Source of the DNA: Escherichia coli
GTDB lineage: Bacteria; Pseudomonadota; Gammaproteobacteria; Enterobacterales; Enterobacteriaceae
DNA length: 64,000 bases
Assembly (NCBI RefSeq): GCF_016026235.1
Contig: NZ_CP065613.1
Reading direction: 5' to 3' (one strand)
Positions 8,083 to 64,000 of the stretch are shown here, piece after piece. The translations under genes and the position numbers were made by a program. The notes beneath the pieces are model-generated. The model saw only the letters and a list, made by a program, of their open reading frames with translations, had not been told where the DNA came from and ran no database searches. How positions within the stretch are numbered: the stretch's first letter is position 1; each line of letters opens with the position of its first letter.

Positions 8083-9507
8083 TAATGCCAGTCAGTTAAG
8101 CAACTGACTGGCTCTTTTTCGGGGCTGTGGGGTATTTCCAGGGCCTCTCCTTTACCACTCTCGGGAAGGCCCTTCCCCTTCTCGTCGGTAATTTCACAAG
8201 TTGTCCCATACTTGCAAGATCGCGCATCAGCTCCGGTATACGTCCCGGTGAAGCGCCCTGCAATGTCATCAGCATTCTCATCACCATTCCGCATGATTCT
8301 GAGAAACTCAGTTGATTCGGCCAGTAACCTTTCAGATGTTCCGCCATTTTAATCATCTGATATCTCACCAGATTATAAGCCAGTAAGACACCCCACAGCT
8401 CTTGCTCCACAAGCTCCGGCTTTTTACTTCTCAGCGTCAGCCTGCTCAGTTGCATCGTCTGTTTTATCTCCCTGTATCCCAGTTCGATTTCCCAGCGATG
8501 ACTGTACAGATCCGCCATTTCTCCTCCGGGGAAGCGCATGGCGTCCGTCATCGACGTCAGCAGATGGCAGACTTTTCCTTTGCGCGTCACGGTCAGCAGG
8601 CGGGCTGTCACTTCATTTCCCAGTCCCGGCCACTTTTTTCGTGCCTGCGGGCTGGTTTTCAGCTTCACCAGATGATCGCCTTTACCCAGTTTTCTGAGCT
8701 CTTCATATTGCGCTCCCTTTCTGAGAGGTATCATCCAGTGGCGGTGTTCTCCCGCCAGGCTCCAGGCATTTAACAGTCCCAGTGAGTAATAACCTTTATC
8801 CATTAACGTCAGAGTGTTATCGCCGGTTTGTTCTATAAGTTGCTCAGCAAGCTCATTTTCGCTGTTCTTCATCGTGCCGAAGGCTGCAGCCGTCAGCAGA
8901 TGGCTGGTCAGTTCCATCTGGCAGACCATTTTGACCTGCGGGTAGAGCGCCGGGTTCCCGGCATGTGTCTGGCGGGGAAGGCTGCATCGTTCTCTGGTGT
9001 ATCCGGTGTGCGCCAGAACACACCATCGATGGCCAGCAGGGTCAGGCCGCACCAGTGCGGATGCGGCGTGGCGTTATGCCAGAGCTGCGCTGTTTTCGTG
9101 AACACGCGGCGGACAGCCTCACTTCCCAGGCGCTGGCGGGCCTGAATAACGGCACTGGGGGCAACGAAGGGGCGATTGCCCGGCAGCATGATGTCCAGGC
9201 GATTCACAATCTGGTGAAGAGGTTCTTTACGCTCAAGCGCCATGCCAACAATACACCAGACCATCATTTCGAGGGGAAGACGGCGCTTGCGTAGCGTTAC
9301 AGTACCTGATTCGGCAAGGCAACGAGAGATGAGTTCGGGGTCGAGGTAATCCCCCAGAGAAGTCAGTGGGTTACGCAGAGAATCGTAACGGGATACCAGA
9401 TCAAGAGCCTGTCCAATGTGCATAAAAAAATCCGGAAACAAGTGAGCGTTTCCGGATTCTTACACAGCCACTGGATCGGTCAACTGATCCTTAACTGATC
9501 GGCATTA
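8083..9507 (-). mobile_element. Insertion sequence IS4 (IS4 family), 1425 bp, transposase gene disrupted
   Basis: Termini taatgccagtcagttaag at 8083..8100 and ttaactgatcggcatta at 9491..9507 are imperfect inverted repeats; internal ORFs translate to IS4 transposase InsG; flanked by a 13-bp direct repeat. Confidence 0.92.
8096..9423 (-). pseudogene. insG: IS4 transposase InsG, frameshifted: N-terminal part in one frame, remainder in another
   Basis: ORF 8908..9441 gives MHIGQALDLVSRYDSLRNPL...ENDAAFP then changes frame; ORF 8096..9052 continues [17 protein letters not shown]... to KKSQSVA; frames switch at a G4 run at 8974..8977 (C4 on the coding strand). Confidence 0.85.
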
Positions 9508-33675: not shown

Positions 33676-36600
33676 ATGTTGTACGATAAATCCCTTGAGA
33701 GGGATAACTGTGGTTTCGGCCTGATCGCCCACATAGAAGGCGAACCTAGCCACAAGGTAGTGCGTACTGCAATACACGCACTGGCCCGCATGCAGCACCG
33801 TGGCGCGATTCTCGCCGATGGTAAAACCGGCGACGGTTGCGGCTTGCTGTTACAAAAACCGGATCGCTTTTTTCGCATCGTTGCGCAGGAGCGCGGCTGG
33901 CGTTTAGCAAAAAACTACGCTGTCGGGATGCTCTTCCTGAATAAAGATCCTGAACTCGCTGCTGCCGCACGCCTCATCGTTGAAGAAGAGCTGCAACGCG
34001 AAACCTTGTCGATTGTGGGCTGGCGAGATGTCCCCACTAACGAAGGCGTGCTGGGTGAAATCGCCCTCTCCTCTCTGCCACGCATTGAGCAAATTTTTGT
34101 GAACGCCCCAGCAGGCTGGCGTCCACGCGATATGGAGCGCCGTCTGTTTATCGCCCGCCGCCGCATTGAAAAGCGTCTCGAAGCCGACAAAGACTTCTAC
34201 GTCTGTAGCCTGTCGAATCTGGTGAACATCTATAAAGGTCTGTGTATGCCGGCGGATCTGCCGCGCTTTTATCTGGATCTTGCGGACCTGCGTCTGGAAT
34301 CGGCCATTTGCCTGTTCCACCAGCGCTTCTCCACTAACACCGTACCACGCTGGCCGCTGGCGCAACCGTTCCGCTACCTGGCGCATAACGGTGAAATCAA
34401 CACTATCACCGGTAACCGCCAATGGGCGCGTGCGCGTACCTATAAATTCCAGACGCCGCTGATCCCTGACCTGCACGACGCCGCACCGTTCGTCAACGAA
34501 ACCGGCTCTGACTCCAGTTCGATGGATAACATGCTGGAACTGCTGCTGGCAGGCGGGATGGATATCATCCGCGCCATGCGTCTATTAGTACCACCCTCCT
34601 GGCAGAACAACCCGGATATGGACCCGGAACTGCGTGCCTTCTTTGACTTTAACTCCATGCATATGGAGCCGTGGGATGGCCCGGCGGGCATCGTGATGTC
34701 TGACGGTCGTTTTGCTGCCTGTAACCTCGACCGTAACGGTCTGCGTCCGGCGCGCTACGTCATCACCAAAGATAAGCTCATCACCTGCGCCTCTGAAGTC
34801 GGTATCTGGGATTACCAGCCTGACGAAGTGGTCGAAAAAGGCCGCGTCGGGCCAGGCGAACTGATGGTTATCGACACCCGCAGTGGGCGTATTCTGCACT
34901 CGGCAGAAACCGATGACGATCTGAAAAGCCGCCATCCATATAAAGAGTGGATGGAGAAAAACGTCCGCCGACTGGTACCGTTTGAAGATCTGCCCGATGA
35001 AGAAGTGGGTAGCCGCGAACTGGACGACGACACGCTTGCCAGCTACCAGAAACAGTTTAACTACAGCGCGGAAGAGCTGGACTCCGTAATTCGCGTACTG
35101 GGCGAAAACGGTCAGGAAGCGGTCGGTTCGATGGGCGATGATACCCCATTCGCCGTGCTCTCCAGTCAGCCGCGCATTATTTACGACTACTTCCGCCAGC
35201 AGTTTGCCCAGGTGACTAACCCGCCAATCGACCCGCTGCGTGAAGCGCATGTTATGTCGCTCGCCACCAGCATTGGTCGTGAAATGAACGTCTTCTGTGA
35301 AGCAGAGGGCCAGGCGCACCGTTTAAGCTTTAAATCGCCGATTCTGCTCTACTCCGATTTCAAACAGCTCACGACGATGAAAGAGGAGCACTACCGCGCA
35401 GATACGCTGGATATCACCTTTGACGTCACTAAAACCACGCTCGAAGCGACAGTCAAAGAGCTGTGCGACAAAGCCGAAAAAATGGTACGTAGCGGCACCG
35501 TGTTGCTGGTGCTCTCCGACCGGAATATCGCTAAAGATCGCCTGCCGGTTCCGGCTCCGATGGCGGTTGGCGCGATCCAGACCCGTCTGGTCGATCAAAG
35601 CCTGCGCTGCGATGCCAACATCATCGTCGAAACCGCCAGCGCCCGCGATCCGCACCACTTCGCCGTGTTGCTGGGCTTCGGCGCGACGGCTATTTATCCA
35701 TACCTTGCCTATGAAACGCTGGGCCGCCTGGTAGACACCCATGCGATTGCCAAAGATTATCGTACCGTGATGCTCAACTACCGTAACGGCATCAACAAAG
35801 GCTTGTACAAAATCATGTCCAAAATGGGCATCTCCACCATCGCCTCTTACCGCTGCTCGAAACTGTTTGAAGCGGTCGGTCTACACGATGATGTAGTGGG
35901 CCTGTGCTTCCAGGGGGCGGTCAGCCGCATTGGGGGGGCGAGCTTTGAAGACTTCCAGCAGGATCTGCTGAATCTGTCGAAACGTGCCTGGCTGGCGCGT
36001 AAGCCCATCAGCCAGGGCGGCCTGCTGAAATACGTCCACGGCGGCGAATACCACGCCTACAACCCGGACGTGGTGCGCACGCTGCAACAAGCGGTACAAA
36101 GCGGCGAGTACAGCGACTATCAGGAATACGCGAAGCTGGTTAATGAGCGTCCGGCAACCACGCTGCGCGATCTGCTGGCAATTACGCCGGGTGAAAACGC
36201 GGTCAACATTGCTGATGTTGAACCGGCAAGCGAACTGTTTAAACGCTTCGATACCGCTGCGATGTCTATCGGCGCGTTAAGCCCGGAAGCCCACGAGGCG
36301 CTGGCGGAAGCGATGAACAGCATCGGCGGTAACTCAAACTCCGGTGAAGGCGGTGAAGATCCGGCGCGCTACGGCACCAACAAAGTGTCGCGCATCAAGC
36401 AGGTGGCTTCCGGTCGCTTTGGGGTTACTCCGGCGTATCTGGTCAATGCCGACGTCATTCAGATTAAAGTCGCCCAGGGCGCGAAGCCGGGCGAAGGCGG
36501 TCAGTTGCCGGGTGATAAAGTCACTCCTTACATCGCCAAACTGCGCTATTCGGTGCCCGGAGTGACGCTGATCTCCCCGCCGCCGCACCACGATATCTAC

Positions 36601-38136
36601 TCTATCGAGGACTTAGCGCAGCTCATTTTCGACCTCAAGCAGGTTAACCCGAAAGCGATGATCTCCGTGAAGCTGGTTTCCGAACCGGGCGTAGGCACCA
36701 TCGCGACTGGCGTGGCAAAAGCTTATGCCGATTTAATCACCATCGCAGGCTATGACGGCGGCACCGGCGCAAGTCCGCTTTCATCGGTGAAATACGCAGG
36801 CTGTCCGTGGGAGCTGGGGCTTGTTGAAACCCAGCAGGCGCTGGTTGCTAACGGCTTGCGTCACAAGATCCGTTTGCAGGTCGATGGCGGCCTGAAAACG
36901 GGTGTCGATATCATCAAGGCGGCGATTCTCGGCGCAGAAAGCTTCGGCTTCGGCACTGGCCCTATGGTGGCGCTCGGCTGTAAATATCTACGTATTTGCC
37001 ATCTGAACAACTGCGCAACGGGTGTAGCAACTCAGGATGACAAACTGCGTAAGAACCACTATCACGGCCTGCCGTTCAAGGTTACCAATTACTTTGAATT
37101 TATTGCCCGTGAAACCCGCGAGCTGATGGCACAGCTGGGCGTAACGCGTCTGGTGGATCTGATTGGTCGCACCGACCTGCTGAAAGAACTGGACGGTTTC
37201 ACCGCCAAACAGCAAAAACTGGCGCTGTCGAAGCTGCTGGAGACCGCCGAACCGCATCCAGGTAAGGCACTCTACTGCACCGAAAACAACCCGCCGTTTG
37301 ATAACGGCCTGCTGAACGCGCAGTTGCTGCAACAGGCGAAACCGTTTGTCGATGAGCGCCAGAGCAAAACCTTCTGGTTCGATATTCGCAACACCGACCG
37401 TTCTGTCGGCGCGTCGCTTTCAGGCTATATCGCCCAGACGCACGGCGATCAGGGGCTGGCAGCCGATCCTATCAAAGCGTACTTCAACGGCACCGCAGGC
37501 CAGAGCTTCGGCGTGTGGAACGCGGGCGGCGTGGAACTGTACCTGACCGGTGATGCCAACGACTATGTCGGTAAAGGCATGGCGGGCGGCTTAATCGCCA
37601 TTCGTCCTCCGGTTGGTTCCGCCTTCCGCAGCCATGAAGCAAGCATTATCGGCAACACCTGCCTGTATGGCGCGACCGGTGGTCGTCTGTATGCCGCAGG
37701 CCGCGCGGGTGAACGTTTCGGCGTGCGGAACTCCGGTGCTATCACCGTGGTAGAAGGCATTGGCGACAACGGCTGTGAATATATGACGGGCGGTATAGTC
37801 TGTATTCTGGGTAAAACCGGCGTGAACTTCGGCGCGGGCATGACTGGCGGCTTCGCTTACGTTCTCGATGAAAGCGGCGATTTCCGCAAACGCGTTAACC
37901 CGGAACTGGTCGAGGTCTTAAGCGTTGACGATCTGGCGATCCATGAAGAGCATCTGCGTGGTCTTATCACCGAGCATGTTCAGCATACCGGTTCTCAGCG
38001 TGGTGAAGAGATTCTGGCGAACTGGTCAACCTTCGCCACTAAATTTGCGCTGGTTAAACCGAAGTCCAGTGATGTAAAAGCACTGCTGGGTCACCGTAGT
38101 CGTAGCGCAGCAGAGTTGCGCGTGCAGGCGCAGTAA
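33676..38136 (+). CDS. gltB: Glutamate synthase (NADPH) large subunit GltB
   Basis: ORF track 33568..38136; start placed at the ATG giving [23 protein letters not shown]..., 1486 aa with Ntn Cys; in-frame upstream ATGs at 33568 and 33583 are alternative starts. Confidence 0.93.
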
Positions 38137-39567
<1,431 letters not shown>

Positions 39568-57459: not shown

Positions 57460-57723
57460 ATGAAAATCAAAACCACTGTTGCTGCATTAAGCGTACTTTC
57501 TGTTCTCTCTTTCGGTGCATTCGCTGCCGACTCCATTGATGCTGCACAAGCACAAAATCGTGAAGCAATCGGGACCGTATCCGTAAGTGGTGTGGCGTCT
57601 TCGCCAATGGATATGCGTGAAATGCTGAACAAAAAAGCGGAAGAGAAAGGCGCAACGGCCTACCAGATTACTGAAGCTCGTAGCGGTGACACCTGGCACG
57701 CTACGGCTGAACTGTACAAATAA
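57460..57723 (+). CDS. yhcN: Stress-induced periplasmic protein YhcN (DUF1471 / YdgH-BhsA family)
   Basis: ORF track 87 aa, MKIKTTVAALSVLSVLSFGAFAADSIDAAQAQNREAIGTVSVSG..., signal peptide. Confidence 0.9.
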   Translation: MKIKTTVAALSVLSVLSFGAFAADSIDAAQAQNREAIGTVSVSGVASSPMDMREMLNKKAEEKGATAYQITEARSGDTWHATAELYK

Positions 57724-57750
57724 ACCCTCATCGTCTTGTCCGACGATATT

Positions 57751-57777
57751 GCCCCCGGTTCGGGGGCTTTTTTTTGC
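57751..57777 (+). terminator. Rho-independent terminator downstream of yhcN
   Basis: gcccccggttcgggggc followed by tttttttt. Confidence 0.75.
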
Positions 57778-57778
57778 G

Positions 57779-58051
57779 CTAATGACGAACATTAAAACGC
57801 AAATGCCCTTCCAGCTCTTCCTCTGCCTCATCAAACAGCAATATTAACGCGCCAAAACGGCGACGCGTTTTCTCTCCCAGATGAACAAATTCAATCTCAA
57901 GTGGTAGCGGCAGGACATCGTTCATTAACACATCCCATAGTGAGTCGAGATCGCGTACCTTATCTTTCGCCAGACCAAAGGTTTGGCTAAAGTCACGATA
58001 AAAATCCTCCGGACTCTCAATCTCATCAAAATCAAAGGTATAAATATTCAT
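57779..58051 (-). CDS. yhcO: Barstar-like protein YhcO
   Basis: ORF track 90 aa, [58 protein letters not shown]... Confidence 0.88.
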
Positions 58052-58142
58052 CTGTTGCCACCGTCACGTTTCGCGGCGAGTTCTGCCGTGCATCGCTAAG
58101 TATAGCCATGAAAAAACCGACGCTTTTGGCGTCGGTTTTGAC

Positions 58143-60110
58143 TTAACTATCAGTCAACGCATGTTGATACTTATGGAGCATCCCCGCCAGCCGATGTACC
58201 GGTTCCGTCACCTGCGGTGGCGCTTGCCAGATGCGTAGCTTTTCCTGGTAGATTTCAAGTTCTTCCAGCAACTGGCCAAAGTACCGGCGACGTTTATCAT
58301 CGCTACGGGCAGATATCACATGGTCTGCTGTGCGGCGCATTTGTCGGTGAAACGCCGATAAATCCTCGTTAACCGGGATCGGCGCATCACGCAGGCGCTG
58401 GTGCGCGATAATCATCGTCAGCGCCAGGCGAAATTTCGGCAAATCCCCTGGGAACTTATTCATCAGCAAAAACAGCTGCTGATAAAGTGCCGGGAGGTGG
58501 TTCTCTTTACGACGTGCCACATTGGTAGTCATCGCGGAAACAGCGGCAGAAACAAACTGATTAAGCAGTACACGTCCAGTCCTGTCGCGCGATTTATCCC
58601 GCACCAGCAAAATAACGGTGAACGCGAGCACACAGCCGACGATTTGCCCTAATGCGCTGTCGAGAAACTGACTGAAATGGAAAGTCATCGGGTTATCAAG
58701 CACGATAATATTTATGGTGCTGGCCAGTGCCCCCATCGAGCCCAGTCGCCGTTTCTGTACTTCTATACCGAGGAAGAATCCCAGCACTGCCAGGCTAATA
58801 CACAGCAGCAACATGGTCTGTTGGGTATTAGGGATAATCACCAAAAAGTAAAGCAGCCCTAACGGCAGCGCTGCCAGCGTCCCGTAGATAAAGTCGATCG
58901 CCACCATGCGTGGATTCGGCAAACGCATTGCCAGTGACGTCACTACCGCAATCATCACCATTGCACCACTGCCGGAAGTCCAGCCCGTCCACAGCCAGAA
59001 AAGCGTGCCCAGAATGCAGGAAAGTGTGGTTCGCCAGAAGTTAACCATCGCATGATGACGTTCGGCTGACTCTACTTTGACTTCCGGTTCGCCTTGCAGG
59101 ATCTCTTCTTCGGTGGCGTTGATTTTTGTGTTACTGATAACGCCGCGCTTGAGAAGCTGATAACGCGTTGCCGCCGCGACCCAGCTATAAATGGTGACAG
59201 GCGTTTCCCGTTCCCCGGTCCAGGCGATAACTCTCCGCAGGCGTTTGAGCTGCTTGTGAACGTCCTGCGCGGTTTCTACCGGCGTATCAAAAAATTCGCG
59301 GAAAGTATCAGTGATCAATTCTGGGCGCGTATTCTGAATAAGATAAGTTTCGCAGGATTGGGTAATCAGCGTCAGCGATAGCGTATTGATCGCTTTTAAA
59401 CGTCGATTGGCCCGCGCCCAGCGGGAAGATTCCATATTCAGATTGCTGCGCATGCCTTGTAGCGCCGTGGTGCGTCGAACCAGGTCGCCCCAGGCCTTAT
59501 CAACAATCTCGCCATCACCATGTTTGATGCATAATTGCATTAGTTGATATTGCGCCACCAGCAAACTTTCCAGCTCTCGATCCACTTCTTGTTTGATCGA
59601 TCGCGGAGAAAAGAGCAGATCCGCCATAATCGCACACACAATACCGATAACGATCTCGCTACAACGTTCGACGGCAAACTGCGGCGTAAGAAGCGGTTCC
59701 GGCTGAATGGTGATCACAATGATCAGCGCGGTATAACCAGCCAGCCCCCACGCATACGAGTTTTCTATTCGTACCAGCGAGGATATCCAGGTACAAAAAC
59801 CGGCCCAGATACAGCACACCAGAATCATCAATAATGGTGCGCGGATCATCGCAATGATGATCACCAGTCCGGCAATACAGCCAATAAATGTGCCGATGAT
59901 GCGCAAAAAGCCACGATAGCGAATAGCGCCAGAATACGGTTCACCTCCCGCAGCAAAGGCCGGACCGGCAGCAACAATCGCCGCTGTCAGTACCGCCCAG
60001 CGTGGCGTTTCCAGCTGGAAGTGAAAGCCAACAAACAGCGCCAGTACAATGGCGGTCGCCAGTTTTACCGCAAAGCGAATATGTTGGTTAGCAATGGAGA
60101 AAATACCCAT
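58143..60110 (-). CDS. aaeB: p-Hydroxybenzoic acid efflux pump subunit AaeB
   Basis: ORF track 655 aa, [61 protein letters not shown]... Confidence 0.93.
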
Positions 60111-60115
60111 CGTGA

Positions 60116-61048
60116 TTAACCAAACTCACGCAGGCGATGGGCCATTTTACGGAAGAACGAATCCTGGCTTTCGTCGCGATCTTGTTTGCCAGTGACCACC
60201 ACTGTAGCAGTGGTGCCCGCAGGCCAGATGTTCTCTTGCTGGTTGTCGAGACGAATACGAACCGGAACACGTTGCGCCAAACGCACCCATTCAAGGTTAG
60301 AGTCGATGGTCGCCATCCCTTTGTCGTCACGCGTGCTGCTGGCGTTGGTGACCCCAGCGGCAACACTATCAACAGTCCCTTTCAGCACTTTGTTACTGCC
60401 AAGCGGCGTGATCTCTGCACGATACCCAGGGCGCACCCCTTCCAGCTTAGTTTCTTCCATATAGGCCAGTACATAGAAAGAGTTCTGTTTCACCAGCGCA
60501 ACCGCCGTTGATCCACGAGTAATAAACTCACCGGTATAGACATTGAGGTTGGTCACCCAGCCATCCGCTGGCGCGCGGATCACCGTGCGTTCAAGATCCA
60601 GTTTTGCCAGATCGCGGGTCGCCTGCGCTTTCGCTAACTGATGCAGAACAGTTTGTAGTACGTTGTTGGCCTAGTCGATCTCTTCGCGAGACATCACCTG
60701 CACACCGAGACGGTTACGACGTCCGGCCTCCTGGCGTTTCTCCTGTGCCAGTACCTGATAATAAGCAACATCGGCTTGCGCTTCCTCAAGCGCCTTTTGA
60801 TAGCGCGGCTGGTCGATGGTGAACAGTACCTGTCCTTTTTTCACCAGCTGGTTATCATGAACATTCACCTGGGTAATGAGTCCAGAAACGTCCGGCGCGA
60901 TCGCAACGACGTCAGCGCTAAAGCGCGCGTCACGCGTCCACGGGGATTCGGTGTAATAGACCCAGGCATTAAAAATTGCGATGAAGGCCAGAATGACTAA
61001 TACGACCGTGATGGCCGTACGGGAGAATTTTCTTATTAGTGTTTTCAC
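60116..61048 (-). pseudogene. aaeA: p-Hydroxybenzoic acid efflux pump membrane-fusion subunit AaeA, interrupted by an in-frame amber codon at codon 126
   Basis: The 933-nt frame (311 codons) is intact except for TAG at 60671..60673 on the minus strand; ORF track splits it into 60671..61048 ([26 protein letters not shown]...SREEID) and 60116..60583; same-frame translation between them reads [38 protein letters not shown]. Confidence 0.85.
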
Positions 61049-61055
61049 TTCAACC

Positions 61056-61259
61056 TCAAACGAACAGTCGCGATATCAAATAAAACAAGCAGCAATAGAG
61101 CGCGGTGTTGAACAACGCCGGATGCCAGACAAAGTCGTAGATACCTGTTGGCACAAGTACCCGGCGCACCAGCCAGAAAATCGCCAGTGATAAAAGCAAT
61201 TCAAAAAATATCGGTGGGAAGGACAGCCCAAACACCACGATAACGGGAAACAGACTCAT
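61056..61259 (-). CDS. aaeX: Small membrane protein AaeX
   Basis: ORF track 61056..61328; trimmed to the ATG giving [50 protein letters not shown]..., 67 aa. Confidence 0.9.
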
Positions 61260-61441
61260 GTTGACCTTGGTTGTATAGAGAGAGCAGGCGTTATTATTTT
61301 CAGCATCTGTCGCCGCAGAGAAGGGCATGGAAAGCCGGGCGAGAGCAACATTGCTGTAGATTGATATTTAATATATTAGCGTAACTGTTATGCTGTTATC
61401 TATATTATGTGATCTAAATCACTTTTAAGTCAGAGTGAATA

Positions 61442-62371
61442 ATGGAACGACTAAAACGCATGTCGGTGTTTGCCAAAGTAGTTGAATTTGGCTCTTTTAC
61501 CGCCGCCGCCAGACAGCTACAGATGAGCGTTTCGTCCATCAGTCAGACGGTGTCAAAACTGGAAGATGAGTTGCAGGTAAAGCTGTTAAACCGTAGCACA
61601 CGCAGCATTGGCCTGACCGAAGCCGGTAGAATTTACTACCAGGGCTGCCGTCGTATGCTTCATGAAGTGCAGGATGTTCATGAGCAACTGTATGCCTTCA
61701 ATAACACCCCCATCGGGACGCTACGCATTGGCTGTTCTTCAACTATGGCACAAAATGTTCTCGCCGGGCTGACAGCCAAAATGCTGAAAGAATACCCAGG
61801 TTTGAGCGTCAATCTGGTTACCGGAATTCCAGCCCCCGACCTGATTGCCGACGGTCTGGATGTGGTGATCCGCGTCGGCGCGTTGCAGGATTCCAGCCTG
61901 TTTTCCCGCCGTCTTGGCGCGATGCCAATGGTGGTGTGCGCCGCGAAAAGCTATCTCACACAATACGGCATACCGGAAAAACCCGCCGATTTAAGTAGCC
62001 ATTCATGGCTTGAATACAGCGTGCGGCCCGACAATGAATTTGAACTGATTGCACCGGAAGGGATCTCGACTCGCCTGATCCCGCAAGGGAGATTTGTGAC
62101 TAATGATCCGATGACGCTGGTGCGCTGGCTAACGGCGGGTGCCGGGATCGCCTACGTGCCGCTGATGTGGGTGATCAACGAGATCAATCGTGGGGAGCTG
62201 GAGATCCTGCTGCCGCGTTATCAGTCAGATCCACGCCCGGTTTATGCGTTATATACCGAAAAAGATAAGCTGCCGCTGAAGGTACAGGTCGTGATCAACT
62301 CGCTGACGGATTATTTTGTTGAGGTCGGTAAATTGTTTCAGGAGATGCACGGGCGCGGGAAAGAGAAGTAA
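61442..62371 (+). CDS. aaeR: LysR-family transcriptional activator AaeR
   Basis: ORF track 309 aa, MERLKRMSVFAKVVEFGSFTAAARQLQMSVSSISQTVSKLEDELQVKLLNRSTR..., LysR HTH. Confidence 0.94.
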   Translation: MERLKRMSVFAKVVEFGSFTAAARQLQMSVSSISQTVSKLEDELQVKLLNRSTRSIGLTEAGRIYYQGCRRMLHEVQDVHEQLYAFNNTPIGTLRIGCSSTMAQNVLAGLTAKMLKEYPGLSVNLVTGIPAPDLIADGLDVVIRVGALQDSSLFSRRLGAMPMVVCAAKSYLTQYGIPEKPADLSSHSWLEYSVRPDNEFELIAPEGISTRLIPQGRFVTNDPMTLVRWLTAGAGIAYVPLMWVINEINRGELEILLPRYQSDPRPVYALYTEKDKLPLKVQVVINSLTDYFVEVGKLFQEMHGRGKEK

Positions 62372-62414
62372 TTCATATTGTACTGTTACGTTGTACAAAC
62401 CTGTGCCAACGGGT

Positions 62415-62447
62415 TCCCCTCACCCTAACCCCAGAGGAGCGAGGGGA
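62415..62447. repeat. GC-rich imperfect palindromic intergenic repeat, copy 2 (aaeR-tldD spacer)
   Basis: tcccctcaccctaaccccagaggagcgagggga shares both arms with the copy at 44570..44600. Confidence 0.6.
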
Positions 62448-62498
62448 CCGTTCGTGCACGTAGAAAGATTAATTATCCTACTGAAAATAATGAAATTA

Positions 62499-63959
<1,461 letters not shown>

Positions 63960-64000
63960 TTAGTTACTGCAGTAGAGGATTTTTTACGGCTGCCGGATGC

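Follow-up and report, generated by a model that had tools for sequence, protein, structure and literature searches.

A C-to-T change at a former Dcm site leaves an amber codon in aaeA, the adaptor gene of the AaeAB efflux pump, in a lineage of Escherichia coli

The classical amber hotspots of lacI, described by Coulondre, Miller and colleagues in 1978 and by Lieb in 1991, are reported to be CCAGG sequences that turn into CTAGG when the deamination of 5-methylcytosine escapes Vsr repair. Dcm methylates CCWGG, and deamination of the methylated base leaves a T:G mismatch (CTWGG/CCWGG) that is normally repaired by Vsr (PMC2715241). The allele described here, aaeA Q126am, has in common with the lacI hotspots the change of CCAGG to CTAGG and the in-frame conversion of CAG to TAG; whereas the lacI hotspots were found in laboratory mutants, aaeA Q126am is a natural, lineage-wide allele of a chromosomal efflux gene, at a site that is a candidate hotspot. 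The gene concerned, aaeA (yhcQ) of E. coli, encodes the membrane-fusion (periplasmic adaptor) subunit of the AaeAB pump, and both AaeA and AaeB are needed for efflux, as Van Dyk et al. reportedly found in 2004. AaeAB exports 4-hydroxybenzoate and other aromatic carboxylates under the control of AaeR (PMC11481567; PMC4132294).

The window, by which we mean the whole 64-kb stretch of DNA that was analysed, carries on its minus strand (61048..60116) a frame of 311 codons, which is interrupted by one internal stop at codon 126 and closes with the usual TAA. The frame begins with GTG and reads through 125 sense codons, a TAG (plus-strand 'cta' at 60671..60673), 184 sense codons and the TAA, and it appears in the ORF list as two ORFs of the same frame, one of 125 aa (60671..61048) and a remnant of 155 aa (60116..60583). 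In 5,425 of 5,426 complete E. coli genomes it aligns without a gap, over 933 of 933 bases and with a best identity of 99.6%, to a gene annotated as 'aaeA: p-hydroxybenzoic acid efflux pump subunit AaeA'. A preliminary description of this DNA had read the locus as a full-length aaeA of 311 codons with one TAG and no frameshift, which would be translated into 125 residues; the translation and the gap-free alignment agree on the frame, and the size of the product is borne out by the translation, by the ORF list and by the presence of the exact fragment in the public protein collection. Sequence, synteny and domains all identify the locus as aaeA. The window gene shares with E. coli aaeA the 99.6% identity over 933 bases, the neighbours and the HlyD-family domains, but differs in having TAG where codon 126 is CAG, in its broken frame, and in a substitution, A118V, that sets it apart from other alleles compared. 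Since the intact 310-aa frame is lacking, the gene is filed as a pseudogene and not as a functional member of the family. The features of the locus are listed in Table 1.

Table 1. Features of the aaeA locus. Positions are those of the window, except that the window-only changes are given on the scale on which the amber change lies at 376.
Feature	Position	Strand	Basis
aaeA pseudogene: 310 sense positions plus terminal TAA, GTG start, broken at codon 126	60116..61048	-	Sequence, translation, 99.6% ungapped identity, HlyD-family membrane-fusion domains with Gln restored
Amber codon TAG (codon 126), derived base T at gene position 376 (window 60673)	60671..60673	-	Translation, allele alignments
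Translated N-terminal fragment, 125 aa: cytoplasmic tail, membrane anchor, first lipoyl/barrel-sandwich half, about half of the helical hairpin	60674..61048	-	ORF list; Pfam BSH_RND, HH_AAEA_pHBA; Biotin_lipoyl_2 residues 48-79
Untranslated 3' remnant, codons 127-310 plus stop, with coding capacity for the remainder of the hairpin and for the beta-barrel domain	60116..60670	-	PF25963 Beta-barrel_AAEA; HlyD_3 residues 156-239
Missense A118V (GCG to GTG), eight codons upstream of the stop	60696..60696	-	Allele comparison
Former Dcm recognition site: CTAGG now, CCAGG in orthologues; mutated base is the inner, methylated cytosine	60670..60674	-	Aligned contexts
aaeX, first operon gene, intact, 100% identical to reference	61056..61259	-	Gene comparison
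aaeB, inner-membrane transporter, 655 aa, intact; ATG 5 nt after the aaeA TAA, weak Shine-Dalgarno-like sequence	58143..60110	-	
aaeR, divergent LysR-type activator, intact	61442..62371	+	
Window-only change, A118V	353		
Window-only change, Q126amber	376		
Window-only change, synonymous	507		
Window-only change, in aaeB	1727		

For the domain assignment, Pfam was applied both to AaeA with Gln restored at codon 126, on which CusB_dom_1, HlyD_D23, Biotin_lipoyl_2 (residues 48-79) and HlyD_3 (156-239) were found, and to the two fragments, of which the 125-aa product carries PF25917 and PF25878 (barrel-sandwich and hairpin) and the remnant PF25963 (the AaeA beta-barrel). Codon 126 interrupts the helical hairpin, at a point that follows the first lipoyl half (48-79) and precedes the HlyD_3/beta-barrel part (156-239). 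Translation would end after residue 125, and the resulting stub should keep the membrane anchor; missing half of the alpha-helical hairpin, the returning lipoyl half and the beta-barrel, it would provide no periplasmic adaptor for AaeAB. From this domain layout we infer that the AaeAB-mediated efflux of p-hydroxybenzoate and other aromatic carboxylates would be lost. The first in-frame starts after the stop are a GTG at codon 156 and an ATG near codon 200, and a protein restarted at either of them would have no anchor, so that reinitiation cannot rescue the function.

That a supE-type suppressor tRNA, or natural readthrough on a substantial scale, lets the cell decode the amber codon and produce useful amounts of AaeA is extremely improbable. 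In E. coli, tRNA-Gln is known to read UAG as a near-cognate codon, which would put the wild-type Gln back, though in trace amounts only, and aaeB, aaeX and aaeR have all remained intact; these intact neighbours are, however, equally well explained by a recent mutation. Suppressor alleles are laboratory rarities, the stop is conserved in no orthologue, and a search of the 64-kb window found no tRNA gene.

The operon context around the pseudogene is as expected, with aaeR divergent, aaeX upstream of aaeA, aaeB 5 nt downstream, and then yhcO and yhcN. Ahead of the ATG of aaeB stands GAGTTTGGTTAATCACG, a weak ribosome-binding site. Because aaeB starts only 5 nt past the aaeA stop and has such a poor site of its own, its translation is probably reduced through the loss of translational coupling. 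A compositional test of the 560-nt untranslated tail of aaeA revealed no stretch rich in C and poor in G (C/G never above 1.16), and a scan of its coding strand revealed nothing resembling a terminator; we therefore do not predict polarity of a strong, Rho-dependent kind.

The ancestral state of codon 126 was examined using 41-mer probes centered on this codon, for which any 28-base megablast seed must span the central base; a longer probe of 61 bases had been uninformative, its megablast seeds being interrupted at A118V and T133. Three CAG probes, one for each common form of the adjacent codon 127, matched 3,812, 1,103 and 192 genomes, together 5,107 of the 5,426 complete E. coli genomes, while about 320 genomes with other variants inside the probe were left unscored. 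The three corresponding TAG probes gave zero matches in the same 5,426 genomes, which indicates that codon 126 is not a programmed recoding site, and in a scan of the GTDB species-representative genomes the TAG allele was likewise absent. Codon 126 is CAG in the orthologues examined except for an AAG at locus L014, whose assembly has broken frames in most of its genes. In alignments with the nearest alleles, the window differs at this codon solely by T in place of C at gene position 376 (window 60673). On these alignments the stop is derived from CAG (Gln), and what the preliminary description had offered as one candidate for the ancestral codon is thereby upheld. Nor do orthologues carry the same codon under another annotated start or end: besides the lack of any match to the TAG probes, aaeA is annotated at full length in all the listed matches from complete E. 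coli genomes.

As to whether the TAG is a real allele, the exact 125-residue product was found on 21 contigs of NCBI and of the SRA-derived Logan assemblies, including one of 4.56 Mb, and has been deposited as STM05342.1 (E. coli). One contig that NCBI likewise labels E. coli, NJNB01000016.1 (GCA_002466675.1), which occurs in 6 samples, is 100% identical to the window over 57671..64000, that is, over 6,330 bases. A sequencing or assembly error, with CAG in the living strain, a possibility left standing by the preliminary description, is effectively excluded by the identical truncated product on 21 contigs and the identical 6.3-kb contig, and its probability is next to nil. A single-base difference is indeed the commonest kind of assembly error and TAG occurs in no complete RefSeq E. 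coli genome, but an independent assembly agrees with the window at every one of the 6,330 bases. In addition, the 63 complete genes of the window were compared with those of PapRG-04-4, and internal stops were found only in aaeA and indels in none; since the 62 other genes are free of both stops and indels, the assembly of the window is not error-prone. The genome is not in general decay. Five loci with the 155-aa remnant ORF (L010, L011 and L014-L016) were not used as evidence, as most genes there have broken frames and the assemblies were treated as error-prone.

Other elements of the window are recorded here for completeness. An IS4 of 1,425 bp (8083..9507), absent from the reference strain, lies in the dacB-cgtA (obgE) intergenic region and is flanked by a direct repeat of roughly 13 bp, CGGCACATGGCCG. 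This copy is one G short near 8973 relative to intact IS4, which splits the transposase into ORFs of 177 aa and 318 aa, and is thus probably inactive. Rfam identified the greA leader (RF01769, 6470..6591, minus strand, 124.9 bits) and the small RNA ArcZ (RF00081, 29528..29635, plus strand, 120.8 bits), the latter adjoining arcB, and no further family above threshold in the window.

The age of the mutation can be approached by comparison with FDAARGOS_943 (locus L001), which has CAG at codon 126 and differs from the window at only 5 sites over the 3.5 kb from aaeX to yhcO (57779..61259). Four of the 5 differences are peculiar to the window among eight aligned sequences (Table 1), and all four are G:C to A:T changes. 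The A118V substitution is common to the window and locus L004, and is found in no other aaeA allele compared. The aaeA knockout is young, and no other gene of the operon has decayed. FDAARGOS_943 does not rank with the best matches when the surrounding 24 kb are compared, and the closeness of the aaeX-aaeA-aaeB-yhcO block to this strain and of the flanks to other strains is a sign of mosaic ancestry. Elsewhere in the window, gltB and gltD (33676..39567) show 97.4% and 96.8% identity to PapRG-04-4, against 99-100% for most other window genes, and the divergence involves few amino-acid changes; this stretch has the look of a segment that recombination brought into a mosaic chromosome. The closest complete RefSeq E. 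coli genomes reach no more than about 99.4% identity over 24 kb, and the source lineage is sparsely represented among finished genomes.

With respect to the origin of the mutation, the wild-type sequence GACCAGGCC has become GACTAGGCC in the window, and the base changed is the inner C of a Dcm site, the wild-type context GAC CAG GCC containing CCAGG and that of the window CTAGG. Within aaeA there are 81 sites at which one base change gives a stop and 30 nonsense paths by G:C-to-A:T change, of which only 5 lie at Dcm-methylated positions (codons 29, 60, 106, 126 and 295). In the mechanism that we propose, the 5-methylcytosine at the inner position of CCAGG would have deaminated spontaneously to thymine and escaped very-short-patch (Vsr) repair, and the resulting C-to-T change would have turned Gln-126 from CAG into TAG, as at the classical lacI amber hotspots. 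Since the change hit the inner C of CCAGG, a Dcm site, deamination of 5-methylcytosine is the most likely origin; it is the best inference and may be called probable, a good deal short of certain. The genes dcm and vsr are located outside the 64-kb window. When the transition spectrum over the 64 kb was taken from BLAST alignments of the window to PapRG-04-4, its best relative over this length, no enrichment at the inner C of CCWGG was observed (3/368 versus 410/32,278, Fisher p = 0.64), and a general Dcm signal is thus not supported. A hotspot role of the Dcm site at codon 126 itself is plausible from the sequence context.

The same TAG at codon 126 was found at three other loci (L008, L009 and L013), of which the aaeX-yhcO haplotypes show 52-63 differences from the window; L007 and L012 belong to the same haplotype group yet have CAG. 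The preliminary description mentioned neither this second occurrence nor the Dcm site. The product of the L013 type (P0046) occurs on 683 contigs and was named from Shigella boydii 3594-74 and S. flexneri CDC 796-83. This Q126am allele of the S. boydii / S. flexneri CDC 796-83 clade (EFW61444.1, EGI96053.1, EIQ07401.1) resembles that of the window in the codon affected, the TAG and the 125-aa length, but differs from it in a haplotype with 61-63 differences over the 3.5 kb, in having A118 and not V118, and in an insertion sequence between aaeR and aaeX, all of which mark it as an independent, probably older event. The insertion, at about 359..1587 of L008 and L013 and with transposase ORFs of 121 aa and 301 aa, constitutes a second lesion, in the control region of the operon. 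In L007 and L012, single-base indels occur in aaeA just downstream of codon 126, an insertion at 402 (CP027484.1) and a deletion at 381 (SRR7451570), each of which may be a frameshift or an assembly error.

The presence of the same TAG elsewhere, together with the mosaic nature of E. coli loci, here with an aae region like FDAARGOS_943 between flanks like other strains, raises the possibility that the TAG was imported from a Shigella-type allele through a short gene-conversion tract and did not arise as a new mutation. The four-gamete pattern with sites 220 and 399 indeed calls for either two independent mutations or a conversion tract of <180 bp, a limit set by the FDAARGOS-type bases that the window retains at both sites. 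Given also the 52-63 sites over 3.5 kb at which the window differs from the Shigella-type haplotype, and given the greater simplicity of a fresh C-to-T change at a site prone to mutate, import is highly improbable, and independent mutation is favoured over a conversion tract.

In order to survey other amber alleles, the exact N-terminal fragments ending before other CAG codons were looked up in the collection and examples were fetched. At the Dcm codons 60, 106 and 295, amber alleles were present on three, two and two haplotypes, respectively, and at the non-Dcm codons 73, 102 and 98 on three, two and one. Counted as collection blocks with a longest contig of >=5 kb, numbers which reflect clonal spread and genes cut at contig ends and not independent events, the Dcm codons 60, 106 and 295 gave 34, 48 and 20, and the control non-Dcm CAG codons 14, 4, 11, <=3, 0, 0 and <=1. 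As proof of a hotspot, recurrence is weakened by the non-Dcm codons 73 and 102, which also carry TAG on two or three haplotypes, so that recurrence alone does not single out the Dcm sites. The loci fetched from public E. coli assemblies (L018-L033) have the amber at codons 60, 73, 98, 102, 106 or 295, in all cases by a change of CAG to TAG. Evidently aaeA is often lost in public E. coli assemblies.

Such frequent loss leads to the question of whether the loss of aaeA was selected, for example because intracellular 4-hydroxybenzoate (4-HB) is kept to compete with antimetabolites that mimic it, or because futile proton-driven efflux is avoided. We regard selection as unlikely, even though nonsense alleles at many aaeA codons recur on different haplotypes and one of them is widespread in a clade of Shigella (683 contigs). 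In a delta-aaeB mutant, inhibition by the antibiotic DHB takes a several-fold higher dose (PMC11481567), and it has been proposed that the proton-motive force is drained by futile cycles of efflux (PMC4132294). On the other hand, public assemblies have been sampled so deeply that any nonsense change that can occur should turn up among them, Shigella is generally prone to accumulate pseudogenes, CAG is retained at codon 126 in at least 5,107 of the 5,426 complete genomes, and aaeA is annotated at full length in all the matches listed. A more specific proposal, that the in-frame CCAGG sequences at codons 60, 106, 126 and 295 are mutational weak points at which the AaeAB 'relief valve' for 4-HB is switched off repeatedly, and sometimes to advantage, in E. 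coli and Shigella, is distinctly unlikely. If it were true, the amber allele would mark a recurrent adaptive loss and not neutral decay, the gain being either 4-HB kept against antibiotics that mimic it or proton-motive force saved.

Taking these observations together, we hold with a probability of roughly 0.9 that aaeA is a recent pseudogene of an ordinary kind that all sequenced members of its lineage share and that originated from a single C-to-T change of Gln-126 (CAG) to amber (TAG), with deamination at the Dcm site as the most likely origin, efflux presumably lost and the translation of aaeB probably lowered. A literature search on aaeA, Shigella and pseudogene found no paper, and it appears that no publication has dealt with this particular allele; sequences of the truncated proteins had already been deposited. 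The finding represents no new kind of system, but a natural example of the textbook amber mutation of CCAGG to CTAGG, and the identical change is wide in a Shigella clade. Annotations of this lineage should list aaeA as a pseudogene. Hypersensitivity to p-hydroxybenzoate and related aromatic carboxylates is predicted for the strain, which may possibly be less sensitive to 4-HB antimetabolites such as DHB.
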